A stretch of 64,000 nucleotides of DNA from a virus (IMGVR_UViG_3300024319_000003:103697-167696); one strand, 5' to 3'. Positions 46,144 to 63,875 are shown, counted from the stretch's first letter. Program-made: numbers and translations. The notes: generated by a model from the sequence alone, not told the origin.

Positions 46144-47177
46144 TGGCGTACGAAAACATACTCAATAATTTAAAAGAAACCCCACCCCGTGAGTTAAACG
46201 ACCATATCTTGGTCGTAGATGCTATGAATATGTTAATTCGTAGTTTCTCTCTACTCAAAGCGATGAACCCATCAGGCTCCCATGTAGGCGGCTTGGTGGG
46301 CTTCCTTCGCTCATTGGGATACGTAACGAGGATTTTTGATCCTACTAGGGTGTTAATAGTATGGGACGGTAAAGGAGGATCTGCTAATAGGAAAAATGTA
46401 GATCCAAACTATAAAGCTCAAAGAGCAACAAGTAGAATAACCCACTGGGGATTATATGATACTAAGGAACAAGAGATGGAAGCCCTTATAGGGCAATTAC
46501 ATAGAGTTCAGGATTATTTAGAGTGTCTACCTATGCAATCTATGATGTTAGAGAAATTAGAAGCAGATGATATAATAGCGTACATGGCTAAATTAGCTTC
46601 TTCCTCAAACGTTAAGAAATGCACAATTATATCTTCAGATAAAGATTTTTTACAGTTAGTAGATGATACAGTAGAAGTTTACGCACCGGTTAAAAAGAAA
46701 ACCTTTACACAAGATAATATAAATGCAGAATTGCAAGTAATCCCTGAAAACTATAATGTAGTAAAAGCGCTCCTAGGAGATAATTCCGATAACTTAGCAG
46801 GAGTAAAAGGGTTAGGGATAAAAACTATATTATCTGAATTTCCGGACTTAATTGATAAGCCTGGAACTACTTTACAGTATGTTTACGATATATGTGAAGC
46901 AAAGTTAGACGAAAAGAAAGTAAAGAAAATCTTTCCAAAGATAATTACAGAATGGGATAGAGTAGAAACAAACTTTCAATTAATGGATCTACATGTAACA
47001 AGCTTAGATGATAGTGAAAAGCAATACGTAAGAGACGTAATTAAGACACCAGTAAATGATTTACAGACAGGCGCTTTTTTACGAATGTTAGAACTGGACG
47101 GCATCGAAGGTATTACCAAAAATACTGAAGCATGGCTAGAGAATTTTAGAGGTTTAACTACCTACAAAAAGAAGTAA
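46143..47177 (+). CDS. 5'-3' exonuclease/flap endonuclease (PolI 5' nuclease / T4 RNase H family)
   Basis: VDAMN, WDG, YKAQR, EADD, SSDKD and GDNSDN motifs. Confidence 0.93.
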   Translation: MAYENILNNLKETPPRELNDHILVVDAMNMLIRSFSLLKAMNPSGSHVGGLVGFLRSLGYVTRIFDPTRVLIVWDGKGGSANRKNVDPNYKAQRATSRITHWGLYDTKEQEMEALIGQLHRVQDYLECLPMQSMMLEKLEADDIIAYMAKLASSSNVKKCTIISSDKDFLQLVDDTVEVYAPVKKKTFTQDNINAELQVIPENYNVVKALLGDNSDNLAGVKGLGIKTILSEFPDLIDKPGTTLQYVYDICEAKLDEKKVKKIFPKIITEWDRVETNFQLMDLHVTSLDDSEKQYVRDVIKTPVNDLQTGAFLRMLELDGIEGITKNTEAWLENFRGLTTYKKK

Positions 47178-47205
47178 AAAAAACGTGAAGATAAAGCATC
47201 TTTTA

Positions 47206-48709: not shown

Positions 48710-49687
48710 ATGAGTCTACAAACAGAAAGAATAGTATACAAACCATTTGAATACCCACAAGCATTCGACTATTGGTTAAAACAACAACAAGCACATTGGT
48801 TACATACAGAAGTACCTATGGCACAGGACGTAACAGATTGGAAGTCTAATTTAAAGCCGCATGAAAAGAACTTAATAGGGGGAATACTAAAAGGTTTTGC
48901 TCAAACCGAAACTGTAGTAAACGATTACTGGACTAATTTAGTTACCAGTTGGTTCCGGAAACCAGAAGTTATAATGATGGGTGTAACCTTTGGTGCATTT
49001 GAAACAATACATGCTGAAGCTTACTCTTTACTAAACGAAGAATTAGGATTAGATGATTTTGCTGAATTCTTAGAAGATGAAGCTACATTAGCTAAAATTG
49101 ACAACCTAATGAAAGTCAGAGACGCACATGATGGTACTCCAGATTGGCATTCTAGAGCTGTATCATTAGCTATATTTTCAGCATTTACTGAAGGAGTTAA
49201 TCTTTTTAGTTCTTTTGCAGTACTATTATCCTTTAAGATGAGAAACCTACTTAAAGGTGTAGGTCAAATAGTAGAATGGTCAGTAAGAGATGAATCTTTA
49301 CATAGTAACGCAGGCTGTTGGCTCTTCAGGACACTTATGGAAGAGCATCCAGAATTAAAAACTGATAAACTAGAAGCAGATATAAGAGAAGCAGCACGAG
49401 CAGCAATTAATTTAGAATTTGGCTTTATAGATAAGGTTTTTGAGCAAGGAGATTTAGAGAATTTATCTAAAGAAGACTTAAAAAACTTTATACGTCATAG
49501 AGTCAATACTAAAATGGGAGATTTAGGACTTGCACCATTAATTCCTTCTGAGGATATAGATAAAGGCGCATTAAAGACTATGAAATGGTTTGATGCAGTT
49601 ATAGCAGGAAAACAACAGACTGATTTCTTTGCAAATAGAGTTACAAATTACAGTAAAGGCACAATGGACTGGTCCACAGCATTTTAA
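48710..49687 (+). CDS. nrdB: Class I ribonucleotide reductase beta subunit
   Basis: YKPFEYP, ETIHAEAY, EG..LFSSF, RDESLH and DFF motifs. Confidence 0.95.
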   Translation: MSLQTERIVYKPFEYPQAFDYWLKQQQAHWLHTEVPMAQDVTDWKSNLKPHEKNLIGGILKGFAQTETVVNDYWTNLVTSWFRKPEVIMMGVTFGAFETIHAEAYSLLNEELGLDDFAEFLEDEATLAKIDNLMKVRDAHDGTPDWHSRAVSLAIFSAFTEGVNLFSSFAVLLSFKMRNLLKGVGQIVEWSVRDESLHSNAGCWLFRTLMEEHPELKTDKLEADIREAARAAINLEFGFIDKVFEQGDLENLSKEDLKNFIRHRVNTKMGDLGLAPLIPSEDIDKGALKTMKWFDAVIAGKQQTDFFANRVTNYSKGTMDWSTAF

Positions 49688-49705
49688 AAAATAATAATAA
49701 GACAT

Positions 49706-51421
49706 ATGAGCATAACAGTAGATACCTCGGCGTGGGAAGCAGGCAAGGATTATCCAGAATGGATGAACGAAATTTCAATAGCAACAATATCAAAAGGTTA
49801 CTTACTACCTGACGAAACACCAAAAAAAGCCTATAGGCGGGTTGCTTCAACAGTAGCTAGTAGATTAGATAGACCTGATTTAGAAAATAAATTTTTTAGG
49901 TACATGTGGAAAGGTTGGTTAAATCTTGCTTCACCGGTACTTTCTAATACGGGAACAGATAAAGGGTTACCTATATCTTGCTTTGGAATAGATACACCAG
50001 ATTCTATTAGAGGTATTGGACTCACAAATGCTGAACTGATGAGATTAACATCACTTGGAGGAGGAGTTGGAATTGGACTTTCGAAAGTAAGAGGAAGAGG
50101 AGAACAAATCGGAAGAGAAGGTATTGGACAATCAGAAGGAGTTGTACCATGGGCTAAGATTTACGATTCTACAATTATTGCGACTAACCAAGGAGCAGTA
50201 AGGAGAGGAGCAGCATCTGTAAACCTTGATATTAATCACCCAGATATTGAAGAATTTTTACAAATTAGAAGACCAAAAGGAGACCCTAATAGACAGTGTC
50301 TAAACCTTCATCAATGTGTTGTAGTGGATGATACATTTATGCAAAAATTAGAGCATAGAGACGTTGAAGCTATGGGTACGTGGGTAACTATATTGAAGTC
50401 TCGTATGGAAACAGGAGAACCTTATATAATGTTTAAGGATACTGTTAATAATGCTAATCCTCCCGCGTATAAGAGAAATAACTTAGATGTTTCAATGACT
50501 AATATATGTTCAGAAATTACATTACATACTGATGAAGAACATAGTTTTATTTGTTGCTTATCTTCTTTAAACTTAACAAAGTACCACGAATGGAAGAATA
50601 GTGATTTAGTAGAAACTGCTACTTACTTCTTAGATGGAGTATTGGAAGAGTTTTTAGCTAAGACTTCTGGAAGAGATTCACTAATTAGAGCTCATAGGTC
50701 AGCTAAAAAAGGAAGAGCATTAGGTTTAGGTGTACTAGGATGGCATACTTTCCTGCAGAACGAAAGAATACCTTTTGATTCAATAGCAGCAACGTCGTAT
50801 ACTCATCAAATATTTTCTGACATTAAACAAAAAGCAGAAAATGCTTCAAGAAAATTAGCAAATGAATATGGAGAACCAGTATGGTGTAAAGGTACAGGAA
50901 TGAGAAATAGTCACTTATTGGCTATAGCTCCAACAGTATCTAACTCTACAATCTCAGGAGGAGTTTCAGCAGGAATAGAACCAGTACCAGCAAACGTATA
51001 TACTTTTAACTCTGCTAAAGGTACATTTATTAGAAAGAACCCAGCATTAGAATCTTACTTAAGTGAAAAAGGTCATAACACAGAAGAAGTTTGGGATCAA
51101 ATTATGCTGGATAGAGGAAGTATTGCTAATTTACCTGAAGAAATAATGCCAGCAGAAGATAAGCCTATCTTTTTAACCTTTGCTGAAATAAATCAGTTAA
51201 AATTAGTAGAACAAGCAGCAGCAAGACAGAAATATATTGATCAAACCCAATCTCTTAATTTAGCATTTGATCCTACCGATAATCCTAAATTTATTAACGA
51301 AGTACATCAAACCGCATGGAGGTTAGGAGTAAAAACACTGTACTACCTAAGAACAGATTCAGTTATTAATGGAGATATTGGGAGTAGAACAGCAACAGAT
51401 TGCTTAAGTTGTGACGGATAA
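49706..51421 (+). CDS. nrdA: Class I ribonucleotide reductase alpha subunit (no ATP cone)
   Basis: ASPVL, PISCF, GGGVG, RRGA, TNICSEI, APT, KTLYY motifs and C-terminal CLSC. Confidence 0.95.
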   Translation: MSITVDTSAWEAGKDYPEWMNEISIATISKGYLLPDETPKKAYRRVASTVASRLDRPDLENKFFRYMWKGWLNLASPVLSNTGTDKGLPISCFGIDTPDSIRGIGLTNAELMRLTSLGGGVGIGLSKVRGRGEQIGREGIGQSEGVVPWAKIYDSTIIATNQGAVRRGAASVNLDINHPDIEEFLQIRRPKGDPNRQCLNLHQCVVVDDTFMQKLEHRDVEAMGTWVTILKSRMETGEPYIMFKDTVNNANPPAYKRNNLDVSMTNICSEITLHTDEEHSFICCLSSLNLTKYHEWKNSDLVETATYFLDGVLEEFLAKTSGRDSLIRAHRSAKKGRALGLGVLGWHTFLQNERIPFDSIAATSYTHQIFSDIKQKAENASRKLANEYGEPVWCKGTGMRNSHLLAIAPTVSNSTISGGVSAGIEPVPANVYTFNSAKGTFIRKNPALESYLSEKGHNTEEVWDQIMLDRGSIANLPEEIMPAEDKPIFLTFAEINQLKLVEQAAARQKYIDQTQSLNLAFDPTDNPKFINEVHQTAWRLGVKTLYYLRTDSVINGDIGSRTATDCLSCDG

Positions 51422-51422
51422 A

Positions 51423-51452
51423 GTTGCTACTTAGATTAAATTTTCGTATATT
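51423..51452 (+). promoter_or_regulatory. GTTG-N20-TATATT promoter
   Basis: Recurrent motif. Confidence 0.72.
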
Positions 51453-51470
51453 AATATAAAGATTATAAGA

Positions 51471-51731
51471 ATGACAAAAGCTATTAAATTTTATGCAGAC
51501 TGGTGTGGACCATGTAAAGCGTATTCAAGAATATGGAATAAAGTCGAGGAAGACTTCAAACATACAGATGTAGAGTTTACCGAAATTAACATAGATAAAG
51601 ACACTTCAGGACTTGCAGCAGAATACAGAGTTAGATCAATACCCTTTACAGTAATTATCAAAGACGAAGAGGTACGTAAACAGGTAGGTGTGTTAGACGA
51701 AGATGTATTAAAAGAGTTATTAATAAATTAA
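51471..51731 (+). CDS. trxA: Thioredoxin
   Basis: FYADWCGPCK active site and the cis-Pro motif SIP. Confidence 0.95.
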   Translation: MTKAIKFYADWCGPCKAYSRIWNKVEEDFKHTDVEFTEINIDKDTSGLAAEYRVRSIPFTVIIKDEEVRKQVGVLDEDVLKELLIN

Positions 51732-52094: not shown

Positions 52095-52883
52095 ATGGCA
52101 CATTGTGTAGTAAGTTTAAGTGGTGGAATGGATAGTAGCACCCTATTGTTAAGAGCTATCGAAAAGTATGATACTGTAACAGGTATATCATTTGACTACG
52201 GTCAAAAACACAGAGTTGAACTTGAAAGAGCTCAATCGTTAATTGATTATCTAGCAGATAAAGGTCACAAAGTAAATTATCGTCAAATTAAATTAGATGG
52301 ATTAGTAGACTTACTAGATTCAGCTTTAACTGAAGGAGGTAAAGATGTACCAGAAGGTCATTACGAGCAAGAGAATATGAAAGAAACTGTTGTTCCTAAT
52401 AGAAACAAAATGTTCGCTTCTATAACTCAAGCAGTAGCTTTATCAGTAGCAAATAAAACAGGAGAACCTTGTGATATCGCTTTAGGTATTCATGCTGGTG
52501 ATCATGCAGTTTATCCTGATTGTAGACAAGAATTTAGAGATGCAGATGATAAGGCATTTAGAATGGGAAATTGGGATGCAGATAGAGTAGGTTATTTCAC
52601 ACCTTATTTAGATACTGATAAATTTGGTATCTTACAAGATGGATTAAATTTATGTGAGGTTCTAGATTTAGATTTTGATGAAGTTTATAGAAGAACAAAC
52701 ACATCATATAAACCTTACCCGTCAGGAAATAGTGATTATAAGTCAGCATCTTCAGTAGAACGTATTGAAGCATTTATTGCATTAGGAAGACCTGATCCAG
52801 TACAGTATGAAGATGAAACAGGAGAAGTTGGTTATGAAGTTGCAAGAAGACACGTTGAAAACGTTTTATCATCATATTTATAA
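52095..52883 (+). CDS. queC: 7-cyano-7-deazaguanine (preQ0) synthase
   Basis: SGGMDS, FDYGQKH, VPNRN and YPDCR motifs. Confidence 0.95.
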   Translation: MAHCVVSLSGGMDSSTLLLRAIEKYDTVTGISFDYGQKHRVELERAQSLIDYLADKGHKVNYRQIKLDGLVDLLDSALTEGGKDVPEGHYEQENMKETVVPNRNKMFASITQAVALSVANKTGEPCDIALGIHAGDHAVYPDCRQEFRDADDKAFRMGNWDADRVGYFTPYLDTDKFGILQDGLNLCEVLDLDFDEVYRRTNTSYKPYPSGNSDYKSASSVERIEAFIALGRPDPVQYEDETGEVGYEVARRHVENVLSSYL

Positions 52884-53058: not shown

Positions 53059-53132
<74 letters not shown>

Positions 53133-53150
53133 CAACAAATATGAATAAAA

Positions 53151-53180
53151 GTTGTTTTATAAGTTTATTATTCATATATT
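53151..53180 (+). promoter_or_regulatory. GTTG-N20-TATATT promoter driving the queD/queE unit
   Basis: Recurrent motif, directly upstream of aptamer 1. Confidence 0.72.
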
Positions 53181-53194
53181 AGTTATAAGACAAT

Positions 53195-53222
53195 AGTGTC
53201 GTAGCACCACTTTAAAAACACG
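53195..53222 (+). ncRNA. preQ1-I-like riboswitch aptamer 1
   Basis: AGUG-UCGUAGCAC-CACU-UUAAAAACACG: P1 stem, UCGYAG..C loop and A-rich tail, ending 3 nt before the ATG. Confidence 0.7.
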
Positions 53223-53225
53223 AAT

Positions 53226-53429
53226 ATGAATAAAGTAGTAAAAGAAAACTTCCAAGGAATTAAGATCAACGATCATAAAATTCCAGATCCAAAATTACAT
53301 CAATTAGTAAGTTTTATAAAATCCGGTATAAGAATACTGGGGTATATTTGCATACCCTTTAGTCTGGTATGGGCTACAATCTTTTTAGTTTTAAGTGAGG
53401 TAGTAGGAATAATAGAAGAATTAGTTTAA
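53226..53429 (+). CDS. Small membrane protein
   Basis: 67 aa with hydrophobic C-terminal half (KSGIRILG...LVLSEVVGIIEELV). Confidence 0.75.
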   Translation: MNKVVKENFQGIKINDHKIPDPKLHQLVSFIKSGIRILGYICIPFSLVWATIFLVLSEVVGIIEELV

Positions 53430-53438
53430 ATAAAAATT

Positions 53439-53903
53439 ATGGGAAAATTTCAATCAAGTAAAGTTTTTGACGGATTTAGTACAGTGTTTCGTCAACATTC
53501 AGCAGAAAACACACACTGTAGATTCCTACACGGGTACGGTATATCATTTAAAGTATATTTTGAAGGAGATTTAGATGAAAGAAACTGGGTCTGGGATTTT
53601 GGAGGTATGAAAAGAGCTAAAACCTTAATAGACGGCAAATCACCGAAAGAGTGGATGGATTTTATGTTTGACCACACCTTTATAGTAGCAGCAGATGATC
53701 CATTCTTAGAATCTTTTAAGAGGATGGCAGAAGCAGGAGTTGCACAGGTAAGAGTAATACCAGCTACAGGAGCAGAGAAATTTGCAGAGTATATCTTTAA
53801 CAAACTAAATGAATTTGTTAGTAAAGAAACAGAAGGTAGAGTTAAAGTTATTAAAGTAAAATTTATGGAACACGGTAAAAACGCAGCGTATTATGTTGGA
53901 TAA
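53439..53903 (+). CDS. queD: 6-carboxy-5,6,7,8-tetrahydropterin synthase
   Basis: C.FLHGY, WVWDFG, FDH and T.AE motifs of the PTPS/QueD fold. Confidence 0.92.
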   Translation: MGKFQSSKVFDGFSTVFRQHSAENTHCRFLHGYGISFKVYFEGDLDERNWVWDFGGMKRAKTLIDGKSPKEWMDFMFDHTFIVAADDPFLESFKRMAEAGVAQVRVIPATGAEKFAEYIFNKLNEFVSKETEGRVKVIKVKFMEHGKNAAYYVG

Positions 53904-54681
53904 GAAGTTAAAAAGAATAGAGGATTACGATAAGAACCTACCTATTGTAGAGATATATACTGCAGTACAATCTGAAGGTTCAAGAGCAGGGTACCCAACA
54001 GTAGTAATTAGAACTACAGGGTGTACACACAGATGTTACTTCGGTGAAGGAGGATGGTGTGATAGTTGGTATACAAGTATTCATCCGGAAAAAGGGCATT
54101 TTAATTTCAAAGATATTATTAAAGCATATGAAGATAATCCTCATATAAAAGAAATGATGTTGACTGGTGGTTCACCAACAATGCATCCAGCCTTAGTAAA
54201 CGAACTAACACACTTTGCACATGAAAACAACATATTCATTACTATTGAAACTGAGGGATCTCATTTTCTTCCTACCGATTATCCTATTAATTTGCTTAGC
54301 ATTAGTCCTAAGTTTAGTAATAGTGTCCCCGTTGTTGGTGTTACAACTCCTCAGGGATCCATTACCGACGAAAGAATGGTAAAACGTCATAATAAGTTTA
54401 GACTTAATTATGAAGCAATAAGACAATCAATTGATTACCATTCTGATTACCATATTAAACCTGTATGGGACGGTAAAGATGAAGGAGCATTATCAGAGAT
54501 TATGGAATGTATCGATATCTTAGAAGTACCTCAACATAAAGTTTGGTTTATGCCTGCTGGAGATTCAAGAGAAGCACTGTTTAAATCTTACCCGGTATTA
54601 TTTGATTGGGTTAGAGATAATGGTTATAGAATGACTTGGAGACCGCACATTATTGCTTTCGAAGATCAAAGAGAGGTATAA
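53893..54681 (+). CDS. queE: 7-carboxy-7-deazaguanine synthase (radical SAM)
   Basis: E.YTAVQSEG..G.P, GCTHRCYFGEGGWCDS (extended Cys motif), TGGSP, ETEG, ISPK. Confidence 0.93.
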   Translation: MLDKKLKRIEDYDKNLPIVEIYTAVQSEGSRAGYPTVVIRTTGCTHRCYFGEGGWCDSWYTSIHPEKGHFNFKDIIKAYEDNPHIKEMMLTGGSPTMHPALVNELTHFAHENNIFITIETEGSHFLPTDYPINLLSISPKFSNSVPVVGVTTPQGSITDERMVKRHNKFRLNYEAIRQSIDYHSDYHIKPVWDGKDEGALSEIMECIDILEVPQHKVWFMPAGDSREALFKSYPVLFDWVRDNGYRMTWRPHIIAFEDQREV

Positions 54682-54815: not shown

Positions 54816-54981
54816 ATCACAATTTATAGAATGGTTACGAGGATTTGCAGAAGGAGTGCATCATTATAATATTACTCCTAAACAATGGGACCATTTAAAA
54901 GAGAAGCTACAATCAGTAGGTAGTAAATCTATAGCAAATTACTCTACTGGTAACTGGAAAATGAATCATACATGGGAGTAA
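54808..54981 (+). CDS. Small ORF (57 aa), absent from the track
   Basis: MNESQFIEWLRGFAEG...TPKQWDHLKEKL; overlaps both neighbours as in a coupled operon. Confidence 0.6.
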   Translation: MNESQFIEWLRGFAEGVHHYNITPKQWDHLKEKLQSVGSKSIANYSTGNWKMNHTWE

Positions 54982-55376
54982 AAAAAGTTTATTACGACTG
55001 GGACGATATAAATAAACTACTGGATAAAGTATATGACCAGTGTAAAGGAGATATATCACTAGTAACAGGTGTACCAAGAGGAGGTACAATATTAGCAATA
55101 CTGTTTTCACATAGATTTGATATTCAGTATACTCCTTATATGAGTAACCATTACCCTAGTATGCTTATACTAGATGATATAGCAGATTCAGGAAAAACAT
55201 TTAAAGACTTAGAAGAAGACTTTCCTAACCCTAAATATGGAGCTTTACACTACAAAACAACATCTGTATTTAAACCAGATTACTATGGTGAAGAAATAGA
55301 CGATGATTTTGGCTGGGTAGTATACCCTTGGGAAAAAGAAAATTCAAAACCTATTCAAGATTATTTGGATAATTAA
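54972..55376 (+). CDS. Type I purine phosphoribosyltransferase (Gpt-like)
   Basis: GVPRGG, PRPP loop LILDDIADSGKT, KPDYY and W..YPWE. Confidence 0.88.
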   Translation: MGVKKVYYDWDDINKLLDKVYDQCKGDISLVTGVPRGGTILAILFSHRFDIQYTPYMSNHYPSMLILDDIADSGKTFKDLEEDFPNPKYGALHYKTTSVFKPDYYGEEIDDDFGWVVYPWEKENSKPIQDYLDN

Positions 55377-55393
55377 ATTAAAAATCGTATATT
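55364..55393 (+). promoter_or_regulatory. TTTG-N20-TATATT promoter driving the folE unit
   Basis: Recurrent motif, directly upstream of aptamer 2. Confidence 0.72.
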
Positions 55394-55404
55394 GTATTAA
55401 TAAA

Positions 55405-55431
55405 TGAGTCGTAGAACCTCAATAAAACAAA
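55405..55431 (+). ncRNA. preQ1-I-like riboswitch aptamer 2
   Basis: UGAG-UCGUAGAAC-CUCA-AUAAAACAAA; near-identical loop to aptamer 1 with a different, compensated stem; 9 nt before the folE ATG. Confidence 0.7.
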
Positions 55432-55440
55432 TTAAATATT

Positions 55441-56154
55441 ATGCCTAAAAAATTTATAGACGGAACAGAATTAGTAAAAGCAGGATATGCAAATGGTATA
55501 TCAAGTCAATTAGCTGCAAAACAAGAATTAGAAGGACCTGAAGCAAGGTTAACTGAACATGAGAAAAAAGTAATTATAGAAAGAGCAGCAAATGCTTACG
55601 CAGACTTTTTAACTGCATTAGGATGTGATTATAAAGAAGATCCTAACTCATCAGATACTCCATTTAGAGTAGCTAAAGCATATGTTAATGACTTATGGGC
55701 CGGAAGGTATAACCCTCTAGATAGGATAACAGCATTCCCATCAGACGGATACGACGGAATCGTACAGGAGAGTAATATACCTGTAACCTCTATGTGTTCA
55801 CATCACCACCAAGCTATTAGCGGTACAGTTAGTATTGCTTATATAGCCTCTGAAGACGGTAAAGTAGTAGGGTTATCTAAGTTAAATAGAATAGTAGAAC
55901 AATTCGGTAGAAGAGGAGCTATCCAAGAACAATTAACTGTAGCTATTCATAATGCAGTAGATAAGATCTGTGAAGGTAATTTAGGAGTAGCAGTTCAAAT
56001 AAACGCAACTCATGCATGTGTATCATGTAGAGGAGTAAAACATAGAGGAGCTTCAATGCAAACAGCAAAATTAACAGGAGCATTTTTAAATGAAGATTCT
56101 GCAAAAGCAGAGTTTTATAAGAATATAGAATTAGCATCAATTTGTAAACATTAA
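55441..56154 (+). CDS. folE: GTP cyclohydrolase I
   Basis: TP.RVAK, SMCSHH, GLSKLNR, QEQLT and HACVSCRG motifs. Confidence 0.96.
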   Translation: MPKKFIDGTELVKAGYANGISSQLAAKQELEGPEARLTEHEKKVIIERAANAYADFLTALGCDYKEDPNSSDTPFRVAKAYVNDLWAGRYNPLDRITAFPSDGYDGIVQESNIPVTSMCSHHHQAISGTVSIAYIASEDGKVVGLSKLNRIVEQFGRRGAIQEQLTVAIHNAVDKICEGNLGVAVQINATHACVSCRGVKHRGASMQTAKLTGAFLNEDSAKAEFYKNIELASICKH

Positions 56155-56158
56155 TATT

Positions 56159-56686
56159 ATGGGAAAACAACTATCACTATTTAACGAAGATAATAACGAA
56201 GTATTTTATGCTCCTTCAGTACCATTTGTGGATGAAGTAGAAATATTCAATGATACTTTCGGTAAACCTAACAACTATGTACCTAATATACCTGAGAAAA
56301 AAGATTGGCAATTTGTATATGATTTCATCCTTGAAGAGCTTGAAGAATACAAAGCTGCCTGTGAAGCAGGTGATATTGTTGAGGTTCTTGATGCTTTATG
56401 TGACATTGCCTATGTTTCGTTGGGTAACGGAACTATGCTACATGGGCTTAAAGATAAAATATGGCCAGCGTATCAAGAAGTACAAGGGTCGAATATGTCA
56501 AAGGCTTGTTCAAGCGAAAAGGAAGCACAGAAAACAGTGGAAATTAGAGCAGTTGAGCAAAAGGAACCGTGTCACTACGAAAGGGTTGGTGCTTCTTATG
56601 TTGTCTATAGAACACGTGATAAAAAAGTAATGAAAAGCATAAATTACTATAGACCTAACTTAAAACAATTTTTCAATGAGCAATAA
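56159..56686 (+). CDS. MazG-like (all-alpha) NTP pyrophosphohydrolase
   Basis: EELEEY...EVLDALCDIAYV...SNMSK motif. Confidence 0.85.
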   Translation: MGKQLSLFNEDNNEVFYAPSVPFVDEVEIFNDTFGKPNNYVPNIPEKKDWQFVYDFILEELEEYKAACEAGDIVEVLDALCDIAYVSLGNGTMLHGLKDKIWPAYQEVQGSNMSKACSSEKEAQKTVEIRAVEQKEPCHYERVGASYVVYRTRDKKVMKSINYYRPNLKQFFNEQ

Positions 56687-56906
56687 AATTAATTTAGAAG
56701 ACCATAAAGTTTATATTGAAACACATAAAATGGAAATGGTACCTTTTTCAACAGCAGTTAAAGCAGTCCAAGAAGCATACGAAGATGATTCACAGGAACT
56801 ACTAGACGCTTTAGATATAGCAATAAGCAACTTATCAGTAGAGTTAACGAGTTTAAACCCAACACTAGAAGAATTAAATGATAAAAATAGCACACGAAAG
56901 TCCTAA
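56676..56906 (+). CDS. Hypothetical protein
   Basis: 76 aa ORF overlapping both neighbours. Confidence 0.6.
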   Translation: MSNKINLEDHKVYIETHKMEMVPFSTAVKAVQEAYEDDSQELLDALDIAISNLSVELTSLNPTLEELNDKNSTRKS

Positions 56907-57675
56907 AAGTATTTTTAACGAAGTACAGAGGCACACAGATTACGATTACGCATTAGTTCATCTTTTTGAAGAAGATAAAGAGTATCTTGAACAATTTAAA
57001 ACTGCAATTAAAAACGGTCGAGAAGTAATATTAGATAACTCTATATTTGAACTAGAAGAAGCATTTGATGCTGAAAAGTTTGCATACTGGATCAACGAGC
57101 TAAGACCAACCTGGTATATAGTACCTGACGCATTAGAGGATACTAAGAAAACTATGAGTCAGATGGCAAGCTGGAATATGAATTACTCAAAATCAGTATA
57201 TGGTAAAAAGATAGGAGTAGTACAAGGTAAGACATACAAGCAGATAGTAGCATGTTACGAATATATGGATAAAATTGCTGATGTAGACATGATCGCAATA
57301 TCTTTTGACTATTCGTATTATACCCATTCTATAACTCATCCTAACAAGTACGTTAGTTGGATGCTAGGACGTATTAAGCTACTTGGAGATTTGGTAAGAG
57401 ATGGTATTATAAATGAAAATAAACCTCATCATCTATTAGGTTGCGGACTACCTCAAGAATTTGCATTCTATAAAAACTCAAATTACGATTGGATATATTC
57501 GTTAGATACATCAAATCCAGTAGTTCACGGTATTTTAAATATTAGATACGAAACAGACGGATTATGGGATAAACAAAGACAGAAGCTATTTGAATTAATT
57601 AACTATAAGGTAGAAGATAGTAATTTAATTTTAAATAATATTCAAAAATTTAAATGGTTTACTAATGGTAACTAA
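56878..57675 (+). CDS. dpdA: TGT-fold 7-deazaguanine transglycosylase (phage DpdA family)
   Basis: ILDNS, IVPD, VVQG, HLLG and SLDTS match TGT/DpdA catalytic motifs; no Zn-finger; located inside a que cluster. Confidence 0.8.
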   Translation: MIKIAHESPKSIFNEVQRHTDYDYALVHLFEEDKEYLEQFKTAIKNGREVILDNSIFELEEAFDAEKFAYWINELRPTWYIVPDALEDTKKTMSQMASWNMNYSKSVYGKKIGVVQGKTYKQIVACYEYMDKIADVDMIAISFDYSYYTHSITHPNKYVSWMLGRIKLLGDLVRDGIINENKPHHLLGCGLPQEFAFYKNSNYDWIYSLDTSNPVVHGILNIRYETDGLWDKQRQKLFELINYKVEDSNLILNNIQKFKWFTNGN

Positions 57676-58207
57676 GCCCTGGATAGTATTCTTTAGTCAA
57701 ACTGGTGGAGAAATAGCTGATTTAGCTAAGTCACTTGGTAAATGGCCTGATAGAATATATACTAACGAAAGACCTGAAAGTCTTAGAGAAATAGATCCTA
57801 GAATAGTGGAAAAAGGTTTTTTTACCCTACCTAATAAACCTACTTTAGAAGATTATGAAGAAGTATTAGTATATTTTCCGGAAGCAATAATTACATTACA
57901 CGGTTGGTTACGTATTATGCCGAAAGAAGTATGTGAAAGATTTTCCATCTTTAACGGACATCCAGGCCTAATAACTGAATACCCGGAACTTAAAGGTAAG
58001 GATCCACAGATTAGAGCATTTGAAGGTAAATACCCAGTTATGGGATGTGTTCTTCATAAAGTTGATGCAGGGGTAGATGAAGGTAAAATACTAGCAGAGG
58101 AAAGATTCAATGCTTTTAAGATTACAGAAGAAGAAATGTGGGGTATATTTAGAGATAGATCATTATATATGTGGTCTATATTTTTAAAGAAAATATTTGG
58201 TTTATAA
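57665..58207 (+). CDS. PurN-like formyltransferase (DpdN-like preQ1 formyltransferase)
   Basis: FSQTG, L.GWLRI.P, N.HPGL..YP..KG and G..LH.VDAGVDEG.I match the GAR-transformylase fold; overlaps dpdA. Confidence 0.82.
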   Translation: MVTKPWIVFFSQTGGEIADLAKSLGKWPDRIYTNERPESLREIDPRIVEKGFFTLPNKPTLEDYEEVLVYFPEAIITLHGWLRIMPKEVCERFSIFNGHPGLITEYPELKGKDPQIRAFEGKYPVMGCVLHKVDAGVDEGKILAEERFNAFKITEEEMWGIFRDRSLYMWSIFLKKIFGL

Positions 58208-58225
58208 CATTTTTTTTCTTATATT
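58196..58225 (+). promoter_or_regulatory. TTTG-N20-TATATT promoter
   Basis: Recurrent motif. Confidence 0.7.
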
Positions 58226-58240
58226 AAATAAAAGGTTTTT

Positions 58241-58762
58241 ATGATAAAAAGAATAGCATTAGTAGGAGCAAGTAGTACAGGTAAGACTACTGTATATGAA
58301 TTATTAAAAAATAAATTACCTAAATATGAATTCGTAAACGAATCTACTAGAACTGTAGGTAGTTACGGATTTCCTATCAACGAGGAAGGTACTTGTGCTA
58401 CTCAGTTAGCTATTAGTAGTTTTCATTTAGAAGCTTTACTCCAACCTTATAACTTAGTACTAGATAGATGTTATATGGATGTTGTAGTTTATACTAAATT
58501 TATGAAAGGGGTAACTTCACATACGTACAGTTATATAGAAGATACTTGGAATAGGGTTAAAAATGAATATACTCATTATATTTACTTCCCTATTGAATTC
58601 GATTCAGTAGATGATGGAGTAAGGAGTATAAGTGAAGAGTGGAGAAAAGAAGTAGATGATGAATTTAAAGCAGTACTAGACGGAGTACGTCAACCTTACT
58701 TAACTATAACTGGTTCTCCTATGCAAAGAGTAGAACAAATAATGAAATTTATAAATGTATAA
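58241..58762 (+). CDS. P-loop nucleotide kinase-like protein (NadR/AAA_28 or dNMP kinase-like)
   Basis: GASSTGKTT, VLDR..D and DDGVR motifs. Confidence 0.8.
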   Translation: MIKRIALVGASSTGKTTVYELLKNKLPKYEFVNESTRTVGSYGFPINEEGTCATQLAISSFHLEALLQPYNLVLDRCYMDVVVYTKFMKGVTSHTYSYIEDTWNRVKNEYTHYIYFPIEFDSVDDGVRSISEEWRKEVDDEFKAVLDGVRQPYLTITGSPMQRVEQIMKFINV

Positions 58763-59120
58763 ATACGGAGCTAAATTAATTAGAGTAGTCGACGGAGATA
58801 CCGCAGATGTAATGATCGATTTGGGTTTTGATACTTGGGTTAAAGCAAGGTTAAGATTTAAAGGGGTTGACACTTGGGAAAAGAGAACAAGAGATTTACA
58901 AGAAAAAGCTAAAGGCTTAGAAGCCTCAGCATTTACAAAAAAGTATCTAGAGATGAATGATGGTAATTTTATCATTCAGTCGTACGGGAAAGGTAAGTAC
59001 GGTAGGATATTAGCTGAAATTTTCATAAAAGGAGAAGAAACCTCTTTAAATAAACTACTAATCGAAAACGGCCACGCTTACATATACGAGGGTGGTAAAA
59101 AACAAACATTTAAAAATTAA
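58755..59120 (+). CDS. Thermonuclease (SNase-like)
   Basis: RVVDGDT, R..GVDT.E, KYGRILA, N..L...G.A. Confidence 0.88.
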   Translation: MYKYGAKLIRVVDGDTADVMIDLGFDTWVKARLRFKGVDTWEKRTRDLQEKAKGLEASAFTKKYLEMNDGNFIIQSYGKGKYGRILAEIFIKGEETSLNKLLIENGHAYIYEGGKKQTFKN

Positions 59121-59123
59121 ATT

Positions 59124-60035
59124 ATGGCAGACGTAAAAAATTATCAAGAAGTAGTAGAAATAGCATCAAAGCATTTAGGTAAAGTTGGTGGTGATGGGTA
59201 TAAAGACACCTACTCACCTGAACTACTGGTCAAAGTACCAAGGTATTTGAATAGAGAAGGATACGGGTTAACCGATAAAAGCTTCGTAGGAGTAGATACT
59301 TGGAACTGTTACGAAGTCTCAGCAATTACAACTAAAGGTCAACCTGTAGCAGGTATGCTAAAAATTGTATGCCCTTCAGACTCAGAATATCACGTAGAAT
59401 CTAAATCTATTAAACTGTATTTAAATTCTTTTAATATGACCAGACTAGGAGATTGTTCAGCAGATTGTATGGCTGTGATAGAAGCTAGGGTAAAAGAAGA
59501 TTTAGACAAATTACTGGAAACAAATACAACAGTAAGTTTTTATAGTGATTTAGAGGACGGAAAAGCACTATCTTTTGAAGGTTATACAGATTTAGGTGAG
59601 ATAGTAGATTTAGATCAAATAGACTTTACAGCTTTTCAATCTGATGCTTCTCAGCTACTTATAGAAGATACTTCAGATACTCCAAAAGAAATAAAATTAA
59701 GATCTAACTTATTAAGATCTAACTGTAGAGTAACGAATCAACCAGATTGGGGTGATGTATTTATTAGAATGAATGGTAAAAATTTACCAGCAGTAGATTC
59801 GTTAGCTAAGTATATTGTATCTCATAGAACGGTAAGTCATTTTCATGAAGAAATATGTGAAATGGTATTTAAGCATTTAATGGATGCGTATAAACCAGAC
59901 GATTTAATGGTATCATGTCTATACACTAGACGAGGTGGTTTAGATATTAACCCTATTAGAGCTACGCATTCAAGATTTATACCAGACTTTTTTACACACA
60001 CAGATTATAGAATTGAAAAAACCTTAAGACAGTAA
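59124..60035 (+). CDS. queF: preQ0 reductase, bimodular type
   Basis: D.W..YE.S, VESKSIKLYLNSFN, SNCRVTNQPDWG, FHE and YTRRGGLDINP motifs. Confidence 0.95.
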   Translation: MADVKNYQEVVEIASKHLGKVGGDGYKDTYSPELLVKVPRYLNREGYGLTDKSFVGVDTWNCYEVSAITTKGQPVAGMLKIVCPSDSEYHVESKSIKLYLNSFNMTRLGDCSADCMAVIEARVKEDLDKLLETNTTVSFYSDLEDGKALSFEGYTDLGEIVDLDQIDFTAFQSDASQLLIEDTSDTPKEIKLRSNLLRSNCRVTNQPDWGDVFIRMNGKNLPAVDSLAKYIVSHRTVSHFHEEICEMVFKHLMDAYKPDDLMVSCLYTRRGGLDINPIRATHSRFIPDFFTHTDYRIEKTLRQ

Positions 60036-61526: not shown

Positions 61527-63875
61527 ATGCAATTAGAAAAAAAGTACTATACGGTTCAAGATGAAGAGACCTTAAAATTACTTCATCAACATATCTTAGA
61601 CTCAGATGTAATAGCAGTCGATACGGAGACTACCGGACTTAACCCTCGTAAGAATAAAATTATTGGTTGGTCTGTTTCTGGAGACGAAGGAGTAGGTTTT
61701 TACTTACCTACTTTAGTCTTTGATTATGAGAAAGATGAGCTGGTATTACAAGAAATAAACGGTAAATCTACTGAGGTTATATCTAGAAACTTACTAAAAT
61801 TACTTATAGGTAAAAAATTAGTATTTCATAATGCTTCTTTTGATGTTCAGTTTATAAAGAACTATTTTGGAGTTGATTTACTACCTAGTGTTTATGTAGA
61901 TACTGGACTATTAGTGCATACTGTATACGAAGAAGGAGCCTTTGGCTATGGTAATCCTTTTGGGTTAAAGTCTATTGCTATAATGAATCAAAAAGAGCTT
62001 GGTTTAGATGTAGAAGAAGCAGCTAATAAGGAACAAATAGAACTTAAAGAATCAATAAAAAATAATGGAGGATCAACTACTAAAGCGTTATATGAAATAT
62101 TTAAAGCTGATTTGGATATTCTTAGTAAATATGCTTCTGCTGATACCGACCTTACTTTACGTATATGTAATTTATACCTTGGAAAACTTAAAGAAGAAGG
62201 ACTAGAGAAGTTTTTCTTTGAAGATGAGGTGATGCCTATCTACCGTGAAGTAACTGTACCTATGGAAGCTTGTGGAGTAGATTTAGATATAGACCTGATT
62301 GAAAAAGTTCATGGTGAGATCATAGAAGATCAAAAAAATAATAAGGAGATAGTAATGAAATCTTTATTAGAGATACCTGAAGTTAAAGAATGGATTATGG
62401 ATACAGCTTTTAAAGAATATCCTCCGTCTCATAAAGGTAACTGGGCTCAAAGATTAGCTGAAAGGTATTCATTAAATTTACCTAAATCTGAGAAGACAGG
62501 TAAGTATTCTATAACTCAAAAAAATATAGAAGCTTTAGAGGAATCACCAGCAAAAAAATACCTATTAACAGGTGATATAGAAATACTAGATGAAATTGAA
62601 GTAGCTAGAATTTCTATGACTATGTGGAAGGAATCGAATGATGGTGACTATATTAATATTCAATCTAAGAAACAGCTAGGCGAGATCGTATTTAAGTATA
62701 TGGGCATAACTCCTAAAGTAGCAGGATCCAATACTAAATCTGGTAGAGCAAAGTTCGATATGGATATGATTAAAGATTTATCTAAAGACTACCCTTGGGC
62801 AGAAAATTTAAGAGTATATAATAGACTACTTAAAATAAAGTCTACCTATGTAGATAGATTTAGAGATCGTCAGGAAGATGGTAGATACTATTTTTACTTT
62901 AAGCAGAACGGTACTGTATCTGGTCGTTATGGATCTGATGCTCAACAACTACCAAAACCTCTTGAAGAAGGAGAAGAAGCTCCTATCATCATGAAATATG
63001 TAAATGTAGTAAGAAAGTTTCTTATTGCCGGAAATGGTAGAAAGGTTATTGATGCCGATTACGAATCTTTAGAACCTCACTGCTTTGCCTCAGTAACAGG
63101 AGATAAAGCTTTACAGGAAATCTTTAATAAGAACTGGGATTTTTATTCTACTGTTGCTATTAAAACTGAAAAGCTAAACGAAGATACTAGTAGATTTCCT
63201 AACGGAGTCTCAGCTGATAAAAGTGCTCCTAATTATTTAAAGAAATTAGATGCTCCAGCTCGTAATAAAGCTAAAGCTTATTCATTAGGTATTGCATACG
63301 GTATGGAAGCTTATGCGTTAAAAATGACTTTAGGAGTAGATCAGAAAACTGCTGAACGTTTAGTACAGGGTTATCTAGATGGATTCCCTCAACTAAAGGA
63401 ATGGAGAGAAAATTCTAGACTTCAAGTCAAAGCTCATGGTTATATTAAGAACTATGTAGGACGGGTTAGACATTTACCTAAAGTTCAAAAGACTTATATC
63501 AAGTTTCAAGATAAGATGATGGATTGGAGATTTAGAAAAGAACTAGAAAAAACCTACGGTAAAGATATAGTTTTAAAAGCGTATAGAGATTATAGAAATG
63601 GACTTAATAACTGTCTTAACTTCCAATTGCAGTCGTTGGCAGCAGCAGTAGTGAATAGAGCAGCGTTGAAGATTAATCAAAAAGCTAAAGAGTTAAACAT
63701 CGATGCTATATGTCAAGCACAAGTGCATGATCAATTGATAGTTAATATAGCTGAAAAAGATGCAGTAATGTTTGCTCCTTACGTTCAAGAGATTATGGAG
63801 AATACTACTAAACTACCCGGAGTAACTTTAAAAGCACCACCAGAAATTGCTAATAATTGGGCAGAAGGGCATTAA
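61527..63875 (+). CDS. polA: Family A DNA polymerase with 3'-5' exonuclease
   Basis: Exo I DTETTG, Exo II HNASFD, Exo III YASAD; motif A ADYESLE, motif B R..AK...LG..YG, motif C VHDQ. Confidence 0.96.
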   Translation: MQLEKKYYTVQDEETLKLLHQHILDSDVIAVDTETTGLNPRKNKIIGWSVSGDEGVGFYLPTLVFDYEKDELVLQEINGKSTEVISRNLLKLLIGKKLVFHNASFDVQFIKNYFGVDLLPSVYVDTGLLVHTVYEEGAFGYGNPFGLKSIAIMNQKELGLDVEEAANKEQIELKESIKNNGGSTTKALYEIFKADLDILSKYASADTDLTLRICNLYLGKLKEEGLEKFFFEDEVMPIYREVTVPMEACGVDLDIDLIEKVHGEIIEDQKNNKEIVMKSLLEIPEVKEWIMDTAFKEYPPSHKGNWAQRLAERYSLNLPKSEKTGKYSITQKNIEALEESPAKKYLLTGDIEILDEIEVARISMTMWKESNDGDYINIQSKKQLGEIVFKYMGITPKVAGSNTKSGRAKFDMDMIKDLSKDYPWAENLRVYNRLLKIKSTYVDRFRDRQEDGRYYFYFKQNGTVSGRYGSDAQQLPKPLEEGEEAPIIMKYVNVVRKFLIAGNGRKVIDADYESLEPHCFASVTGDKALQEIFNKNWDFYSTVAIKTEKLNEDTSRFPNGVSADKSAPNYLKKLDAPARNKAKAYSLGIAYGMEAYALKMTLGVDQKTAERLVQGYLDGFPQLKEWRENSRLQVKAHGYIKNYVGRVRHLPKVQKTYIKFQDKMMDWRFRKELEKTYGKDIVLKAYRDYRNGLNNCLNFQLQSLAAAVVNRAALKINQKAKELNIDAICQAQVHDQLIVNIAEKDAVMFAPYVQEIMENTTKLPGVTLKAPPEIANNWAEGH

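Follow-up and report, generated by a model that had tools for sequence, protein, structure and literature searches.

Does a phage that replaces all guanine in its DNA prepare the substitute in the nucleotide pool before replication, or does it exchange the base afterwards in the finished duplex? The question is raised by a gene cluster in a 64,000-nt stretch of virus DNA (IMGVR_UViG_3300024319_000003:103697-167696, here called the window), which covers the final 64 kb of a virus record of 167,696 bp with a CheckV completeness of 100%. The cluster is the pathway for fdPreQ1, a formylated 7-deazaguanine, of an immuto-like phage, and it encodes the transglycosylase DpdA3, which has the fold of tRNA-guanine transglycosylase (TGT), the formyltransferase DpdN, a P-loop kinase, a nucleoside triphosphate (NTP) pyrophosphatase, and a Gpt-like phosphoribosyltransferase (PRTase). 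The source is a marine-type phage in which every G is probably replaced by the formylated base. The timing of complete 7-deazaguanine replacement is debated, as a modified-dGTP route had earlier been proposed for Campylobacter phages, recorded in 2019 by Hutinet et al. (PMC6884629), whereas insertion by DpdA3 was proposed in 2023 to be post-replicative by Cui et al. (PMC10516641), from whom the names DpdA3 and DpdN come. Since the Campylobacter-phage proposal predates the present analysis, the pool-level idea revisits an existing question, and a literature search found no later publication that decides between pre- and post-replicative deazaguanine insertion.

The reading favoured here, at a rough probability of 45%, is that the replacement of G is prepared in the nucleotide pool by the enzymes of this cluster, with all substrates inferred, chiefly the free nucleotide as the substrate of DpdA3. 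The pyrophosphatase would hydrolyze dGTP, which would remove the canonical precursor and supply dGMP, and DpdA3 would act on a free deoxynucleoside or deoxynucleotide and put preQ1 or formyl-preQ1 in the place of its guanine. DpdN would formylate the aminomethyl group of this small-molecule product, the kinase would re-phosphorylate a product that the host guanylate kinase may not accept, and the host nucleoside diphosphate kinase and the phage polymerase would complete the incorporation. The PRTase would not make the analogue and would instead convert released guanine to GMP, which would go on to GTP and feed FolE. Gene identities, folds, synteny and fusions are direct observations, and the comparative pattern that they form, with two or more recruitments of a kinase and with dNTP hydrolases of diverse origin, suggests more than a modification of finished DNA, as it is hard to explain if the product of DpdA3 is only duplex DNA.

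An earlier note, made from this DNA alone, had described the PRTase, the pyrophosphatase and the kinase as interleaved with folE, dpdA and the formyltransferase gene. All of these genes do lie on the + strand between 54972 and 58762, and "interleaved" is an accurate description, as the identical gene order is found in phage immuto and in dozens of IMG/VR loci:

54972..55376, + strand: predicted Gpt-like type I purine PRTase, 134 aa (PHROG 8995, 2.9e-15)
55441..56154, + strand: FolE (GTP cyclohydrolase I), first step of preQ0 synthesis (Pfam 3.3e-42)
56159..56686, + strand: all-alpha NTP pyrophosphohydrolase of the PRA-PH/MazG superfamily, 175 aa (Pfam PRA-PH, 2.3e-8)
56676..56906, + strand: conserved open reading frame (ORF) of 76 aa, overlapping the pyrophosphatase and DpdA3 genes (homologues at the same position in many IMG/VR loci)
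56878..57675, + strand: DpdA3, compact TGT-fold guanine transglycosylase, 265 aa (homology to immuto and CP220, and fold)
57665..58207, + strand: DpdN, PurN-like formyltransferase (Pfam Formyl_trans_N, 1.4e-9)
58241..58762, + strand: P-loop (deoxy)nucleoside or nucleotide kinase of the AAA_28 family, 173 aa (AAA_28, 8e-18)

The kinase is a conserved partner of DpdA3

For the analysis of gene linkage, IMG/VR was searched with a 64-sequence DpdA3 alignment, and the 80 loci that were kept, 64 of them non-identical, were scanned with iterated profiles of the window proteins. The following counts include only loci with enough flanking sequence, and the two subgroups are defined by DpdA3 identity (at least 62%, and 50-61%):

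Kinase, at most 3.5 kb downstream of DpdA3: all loci 38/40; at least 62% 29/29; 50-61% 9/11
QueF, at most 5 kb downstream of DpdA3: all loci 36/36; at least 62% 28/28; 50-61% 8/8
DpdN, at most 2.5 kb downstream of DpdA3: all loci 36/44; at least 62% 23/30; 50-61% 13/14
Window-type pyrophosphatase, at most 3 kb from DpdA3: all loci 26/36; at least 62% 26/26; 50-61% 0/10
PRTase, at most 4 kb upstream of DpdA3: all loci 33/53; at least 62% 33/35; 50-61% 0/18

The kinase is thus a tight and conserved partner of DpdA3, and the pairing is also found in much more distant phages. In CP220, the orthologous kinase gp057 is encoded directly after DpdA3 and is 29% identical to the window kinase (E 6e-19), and in the Campylobacter phage CC_R7, also with an orthologous kinase, the order is QueC, a 27%-identical DpdA3, an AAA_28 kinase, and then the DNA polymerase. 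A small P-loop kinase lies beside DpdA3 in five of six informative diverse metagenomic loci (L095, L096, L099, L100 and L101; L097 and L098 were left out as they are too short to show neighbours). In L096, the AAA_28 kinase gene overlaps the start of the DpdA3 gene and there are no que genes nearby, L099 has two kinases, and the kinase of L101 also matches the dNK family. In two unrelated Bacteroidota phages, phiST (CGPG_00066, L005:6382-6861) and Chryseobacterium phage MA9V-3 (L107:4474-4944), DpdA3 is directly adjoined by a P-loop protein of another family, AAA_18, which has only the Walker A motif in common with the window kinase and is therefore regarded as an independently recruited analogue; for the phiST gene, the literature states that other deazaguanine phages lack a homologue. 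That the MazG and AAA_18 proteins of phiST are orthologues of the window enzymes was considered and rejected, as there is no detectable relation, and they are analogues only. The arrangements in IMG/VR, in the Campylobacter phages, in the diverse metagenomic loci, in phiST and in MA9V-3 together indicate that the kinase follows DpdA3 and not FolE. Two DpdA1 clusters were inspected, those of phage 9g and a Stenotrophomonas phage; no kinase and no NTP pyrophosphatase is annotated there, and none was detected. Among 50,697 phage records, of which 120 have the kinase family and 235 have DpdA1 or DpdA2, the genera overlap only in Rhizobium and Rhodococcus.

The window kinase matches AAA_28 with 65.6 bits (cut-off 27) and has the invariant Walker A motif GxxxxGKT. 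The usual annotation of such proteins as thymidylate kinase is unsupported, because the kinase does not reach the thymidylate kinase cut-offs (PF02223, 21.4 bits versus 27; TIGR00041, 25.1 versus 83). Its structural model (mean pLDDT confidence 91.8) is closest to the ribosylnicotinamide kinase (RNK) domain of NadR (TM-score 0.77-0.80), followed by human deoxyguanosine kinase (TM-score 0.75), the deoxyadenosine kinases of Mycoplasma and Giardia, deoxycytidine kinase and the Drosophila deoxynucleoside kinase Dm-dNK, and then by thymidylate kinases, and a sequence search of solved structures gave nothing significant. As it is most like the nucleoside kinases, its predicted substrate may be a nucleoside, and an assay with the monophosphate of dPreQ1, as suggested in the earlier note, may be one phosphate off. 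In a search of the complete genome for five kinase families, the window kinase was the sole member, and no nucleoside diphosphate kinase, Gmk, thymidylate kinase (PF02223) or T4-type deoxynucleoside monophosphate kinase was found, a further point for the pool-level route.

Hydrolases beside DpdA3 and the role of the PRTase

The pyrophosphatase of the window is a candidate enzyme for the conversion of dGTP to dGMP. It exceeds the PRA-PH cut-off (34.8 bits versus 21.3), matches PHROG 671 (3e-26), has the acidic metal motif EELEE...EVLDALCD, and has a score of 0.98 with the Atlas viral PRA-PH clusters. It has no PF18909 match and no detectable relation to MazZ, and nothing significant was found in a sequence search of solved structures. 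Other dNTP hydrolases occur in other DpdA3 neighbourhoods: MazG in phiST, MazG alongside a separate trimeric dUTPase in L095, a PRA-PH gene within the DpdA3 cluster of L078, and in L102 MazG plus a domain PF18909 ("dATP/dGTP diphosphohydrolase, N-terminal", MazZ-like, 5e-14), the gene of which overlaps the start of the DpdA3 gene. That unrelated dNTP hydrolases recur beside DpdA3 points to a specific role of these enzymes. An HD plus P-loop protein of CP220 was also considered as a combined dGTPase and kinase, and it was downgraded, since its architecture equals that of HD-Pnk (PMC6097658). The only HD-domain protein in the genome of the window phage (243 aa, HD 9e-5) is encoded at 46455-47186, outside the window, among neighbours without assigned function, and could be another candidate nucleotide hydrolase.

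The PRTase had been proposed in the earlier note as a possible maker of the modified dGMP analogue, with the recycling of guanine released by base exchange as the alternative. By its sequence, it is classified as a divergent and short (134 aa) type I 6-oxopurine PRTase of the Gpt/XGPRT type. It remains below the cut-offs of both Pfam Pribosyltran (18.3 bits versus 26.3) and NCBIfam XPRT (31.7 versus 138; 1e-7), among solved structures it is nearest to the archaeal purine PRTases 4trb (2.4e-6) and 1vdm (5.9e-6) and then to the E. coli XGPRT, its pyrophosphate loop GVPRGG and its phosphoribosyl pyrophosphate (PRPP) motif LILDDIADSGKT align to 1vdm and 4trb, and its C-terminal aromatic motif WVVYPWE is common to archaeal purine PRTases and XGPRT. 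Such an enzyme could in principle start a pathway by itself, joining preQ1 or formyl-preQ1 to PRPP, after which the kinase would form the diphosphate, the phage ribonucleotide reductase would reduce it, and the polymerase would incorporate the product. This would be classical salvage chemistry, and a 10-kb stretch holds the genes for PRTase, kinase, reductase and thioredoxin, but such a route is very improbable, as the PRTase is missing from its position in all 18 loci of the 50-61% subgroup, has no matches in the Campylobacter phages, and tracks FolE instead, and as the universally conserved DpdA3 would be left without a role.

The association with FolE takes several forms. The PRTase precedes FolE in the window, in immuto and in their close clade, and in a Brevundimonas phage and the phiST-like loci L086-L089 it comes after FolE. 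In Stenotrophomonas and Pseudomonas phages of the DpdA1 type, FolE itself has a PRT-like extension at its N-terminus. In the FolE of the Stenotrophomonas phage (L103:4902-5795, 297 aa), this extension of about 117 aa matches the window PRTase by tblastn (9e-5) and by an iterated PRT profile, with no Pfam call. That the PRTase tracks FolE and not DpdA3 fits a role in recycling freed guanine into GTP, which FolE consumes. The PRTase is thus not a core component of analogue synthesis, and the recycling alternative is the better reading.

Exchange before or after replication

The transglycosylase itself is a clear member of its subfamily. It is 78% identical to the DpdA of immuto and 44% identical to gp056 of CP220 over 97-100% of the length, and it matches PHROG 19058 (1.9e-55). 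The family is very large: a protein collection clustered at 90% gave 3722 matches, and a second library, clustered at 50% identity, gave 1428 matching representative clusters. No Pfam family is matched at E≤0.01, including the tRNA-guanine transglycosylase family PF01702, and there is no sequence match in the PDB at E≤10. The AlphaFold (AF2) model (pLDDT 97.6) is matched to TGT by Foldseek along its whole length (E 4e-8), and the alignment with TGT has a Z of 17.7 and an rmsd of 3.1 Å over 231 residues (VIA). Conservation across the 64 sequences is 90% or higher for three aspartates, D53 (LDNSxFE), D84 (IIPD) and D210 (SxDTSNP), with D95, D130 and D256 of the bacterial enzyme bDpdA considered as their counterparts, and the only direct alignment of the DpdA3 profile to one DpdA1 (hhalign), which covers the D53 region alone, is too weak (E 0.059) for mapping the active site. 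A Cys3His zinc site was looked for, and the 64-sequence alignment has no invariant or near-invariant Cys. Isoelectric point (pI) and net charge were tried as a proxy for DNA binding and do not discriminate, as 136 DpdA3 sequences have a median pI of 5.5 and a single DpdA1, of the type that acts on DNA, has one of 5.8.

DpdN is closely tied to DpdA3. The two genes overlap by 11 nt (57665-57675), and in two representative metagenomic proteins (P0175 and P0217) DpdA3 and DpdN are fused into a single protein of 447 aa. The best solved relatives of DpdN are the transformylases of glycinamide ribonucleotide (PurN), sugar-nucleotide N-formyltransferases and Met-tRNA formyltransferase. The substrates of these enzymes are tRNA or small molecules linked to a nucleotide, in no case DNA, which counts for the pool-level route. 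Other DpdA3 fusions (P0124, P0127 and P0235) gave no informative family, P0127 having a NUMOD3 motif and the others no Pfam family. Some DpdA3 proteins are extended at the N- or C-terminus by long additional segments (P0124, which is L095:8001-9761, and P0127), with GIY-YIG genes nearby, and these segments are probably homing-endonuclease fusions or insertions. In two loci, DpdA3 is adjoined by a queuosine-precursor transporter of the Vut_1/YhhQ type (L096:3184-4086 and L102:4193-4879) with no que genes nearby, which suggests that these phages salvage preQ0 or preQ1 instead of making it.

In the published model, the phage replicates with dGTP, DpdA3 then swaps every G in the duplex for preQ1, and DpdN formylates the inserted base; in a variant of this model, DpdA3 inserts formyl-preQ1 directly. 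The PRTase, pyrophosphatase and kinase would then have support or housekeeping functions, with the PRTase and the kinase returning guanine to GTP for FolE and the pyrophosphatase being a house-cleaning enzyme or a dUTPase. To our knowledge, all known members of the transglycosylase family act on polynucleotides, and the TGT fold extends along the whole of DpdA3. Its three near-invariant aspartates appear to lie where the motifs of DpdA and TGT have theirs (PMC10164549). DpdA1 phages likewise have the PRTase next to FolE and the PRT-like FolE extension, members of the MazG family are spread widely among phage groups that yielded no DpdA, and the model comes from the very authors who defined DpdA3 (PMC10516641). 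Post-replicative exchange could well be correct, at somewhat less than even odds. It does not easily accommodate the kinase, however, which lies outside the guanylate kinase family and goes with DpdA3, not with FolE or the PRTase, also in L096 and CP220, where biosynthesis genes are absent from the vicinity, while the two inspected DpdA1 clusters have no kinase though guanine is released there too. In addition, a dGTP-directed hydrolase beside DpdA3, such as the one predicted in L102, would hinder a replication that depends on dGTP. In the 2023 paper, the kinase and the PRTase are never mentioned, no role is given to the hydrolase, and MazG appears only in passing, for phiST (PMC10516641).

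The preparation of the analogue in the nucleotide pool has to be weighed against a number of contrary points as well. We know of no TGT-family enzyme that acts on a free nucleotide. The fold of the kinase does not separate nucleoside kinases from nucleoside monophosphate kinases, the cluster of L102 has no kinase, and the kinase family is also present in about 89 Streptomyces phage records, with no Dpd genes beside the kinase in the single region inspected (Samisti12). The window-type pyrophosphatase is near DpdA3 in none of the ten loci of the 50-61% subgroup, CP220 yielded neither a MazG nor a PRA-PH gene, and relatives of the pyrophosphatase occur in 303 phage records, mostly of groups in which searches for DpdA3 and DpdA1/2 found no DpdA. 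Neither a trimeric dUTPase nor ThyA was found in the complete genome, and as the dUTPase is missing, the window pyrophosphatase could simply be a dUTPase. The authors who defined DpdA3 also argue for post-replicative exchange (PMC10516641). The nucleotide-level route through a kinase and a dNTP hydrolase, as the earlier note had proposed it, is therefore supported in part, by the close and recurrent pairing of DpdA3 with kinases, some of them non-orthologous, and by the recurrent dNTPases, while the published model of DpdA3 stands against it.

In the DNA of immuto, dG is undetectable and fdPreQ1 is found instead, G is completely replaced also in the DpdA3 phages phiST and CP220, and the nucleoside of 7-amido-7-deazaguanine (ADG) has been detected in the cytoplasm of infected cells (PMC10516641). 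These published findings count in favour of the pool-level route, the ADG nucleoside as indirect evidence that the modified nucleotide precedes polymerization. The undetectable dG would be explained by a mixed route, in which most of the analogue enters DNA as a pool-made dNTP and DpdA3 also converts the residual G in the DNA, and such a route would accommodate both the TGT ancestry of DpdA3 and its linkage to kinases and dNTPases. It is the least parsimonious explanation, as another enzyme would be needed for the first modified nucleotide if this is not made by DpdA3, and we consider it improbable. If the replacement is indeed prepared in the pool, DpdA3 would be a TGT-fold enzyme for free nucleotides, and the pathway would be a source of enzymes for 7-substituted 7-deaza-dGTPs.

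The locus and its comparison with known systems

The replication and nucleotide-metabolism genes form one + strand block at 47-64 kb, in the order DnaB, small and large subunits of ribonucleotide reductase, thioredoxin, QueC, tRNA-Ala, QueD, QueE, PRTase, FolE, NTP pyrophosphatase, the 76-aa ORF, DpdA3, DpdN, kinase, a staphylococcal-nuclease-like (SNase-like) nuclease, QueF, small ORFs, and a family A polymerase. The genes on both sides of the seven listed above are:

48710..51731, + strand: class I ribonucleotide reductase small and large subunits, and thioredoxin (Pfam Ribonuc_red_sm 2e-64, Ribonuc_red_lgC 3e-101, Thioredoxin 2e-15)
52095..52883, + strand: QueC (Pfam QueC, 3e-37)
53439-53903, + strand: QueD (Pfam PTPS, 1.3e-14; order matches the annotated immuto QueD)
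53893-54681, + strand: QueE (Pfam Radical_SAM, 4.6e-7; order matches the annotated immuto QueE)
58755..59120, + strand: staphylococcal-nuclease-like nuclease (Pfam SNase 1e-10; PHROG 452 4.5e-40)
59124..60035, + strand: QueF, preQ0 to preQ1 (QueF_N 3.5e-28, QueF 2.9e-17)
61527..63875, + strand: family A DNA polymerase with 3'-5' exonuclease (DNA_pol_A 7e-56, DNA_pol_A_exo1 6e-13)

The SNase-like gene is present only in a subset of the related IMG/VR loci, and no Pfam family could be assigned to the 76-aa ORF, the single match to CcdB being below threshold. The tRNA-Ala (TGC) at 53059-53133 lies between queC and queD within the deazaguanine cluster (Rfam 66.9 bits, and ARAGORN). Slices of 130-140 bases from upstream of queD (53151-53228) and folE (55364-55443) were compared with Rfam, and no PreQ1 riboswitch was matched even with E relaxed to 10. 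Visual inspection of the folE leader shows a small hairpin (UGAG...CUCA) with an A-rich stretch after it.

The closest named relative is Flavobacterium phage immuto_2-6A, and the locus adds a new member to the known immuto-type fdPreQ1 system (PMC10516641). The order QueD, QueE, PRTase, FolE, hydrolase, small ORF, DpdA3, DpdN, kinase, QueF, PolA is common to both, and beside the 78% for DpdA3 the identities are 71% for the pyrophosphatase, 65.5% for the kinase and 38% for the PRTase, the immuto counterparts of which are annotated as "hydrolase", "thymidylate kinase" and "phosphoribosyl transferase". The window phage differs in having the extra SNase-like gene after the kinase and in lacking a small ORF between DpdA3 and DpdN, and a megablast of the region against the phage collection gave no match, so this phage is distinct from immuto. 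With the DpdA1 and bDpdA systems (phage 9g; the Salmonella Dpd system, PMC10164549), it has the precursor pathway and the transglycosylase superfamily in common, and the same double-displacement chemistry is expected. Those systems replace G only partially, unlike the complete replacement in DpdA3 phages, and bDpdA has insertions that form a DNA-binding surface, whereas DpdA3 is a compact barrel of 265 aa with no conserved Cys cluster.

A wider claim, which we advance tentatively and hold to be rather more doubtful, is that DpdA3 is a TGT-fold deoxyribosyl transferase that acts on free dG, dGMP or dGTP and does not modify DNA, and that with its dedicated kinase and a dGTP hydrolase it would form a third pre-replicative base-replacement pathway, widespread in marine and gut phages, beside those for hydroxymethylcytosine (hmC) and 2-aminodeoxyadenosine (dZ). 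The T4 module for hmC consists of gp42, the dNMP kinase gp1 and the dCTPase gp56, and the dZ module of S-2L and phiVC8 consists of PurZ, MazZ and DatZ. The three-part logic of a nucleotide-making enzyme, its kinase, and a hydrolase of the canonical dNTP would be common to all three, in the present case as read from candidate genes alone. The synthesis enzyme would here be a TGT-fold transglycosylase, for which there is no precedent on free nucleotides, and a link to the dZ module is found in the DpdA3 locus L102, which carries the N-terminal Pfam domain of MazZ.

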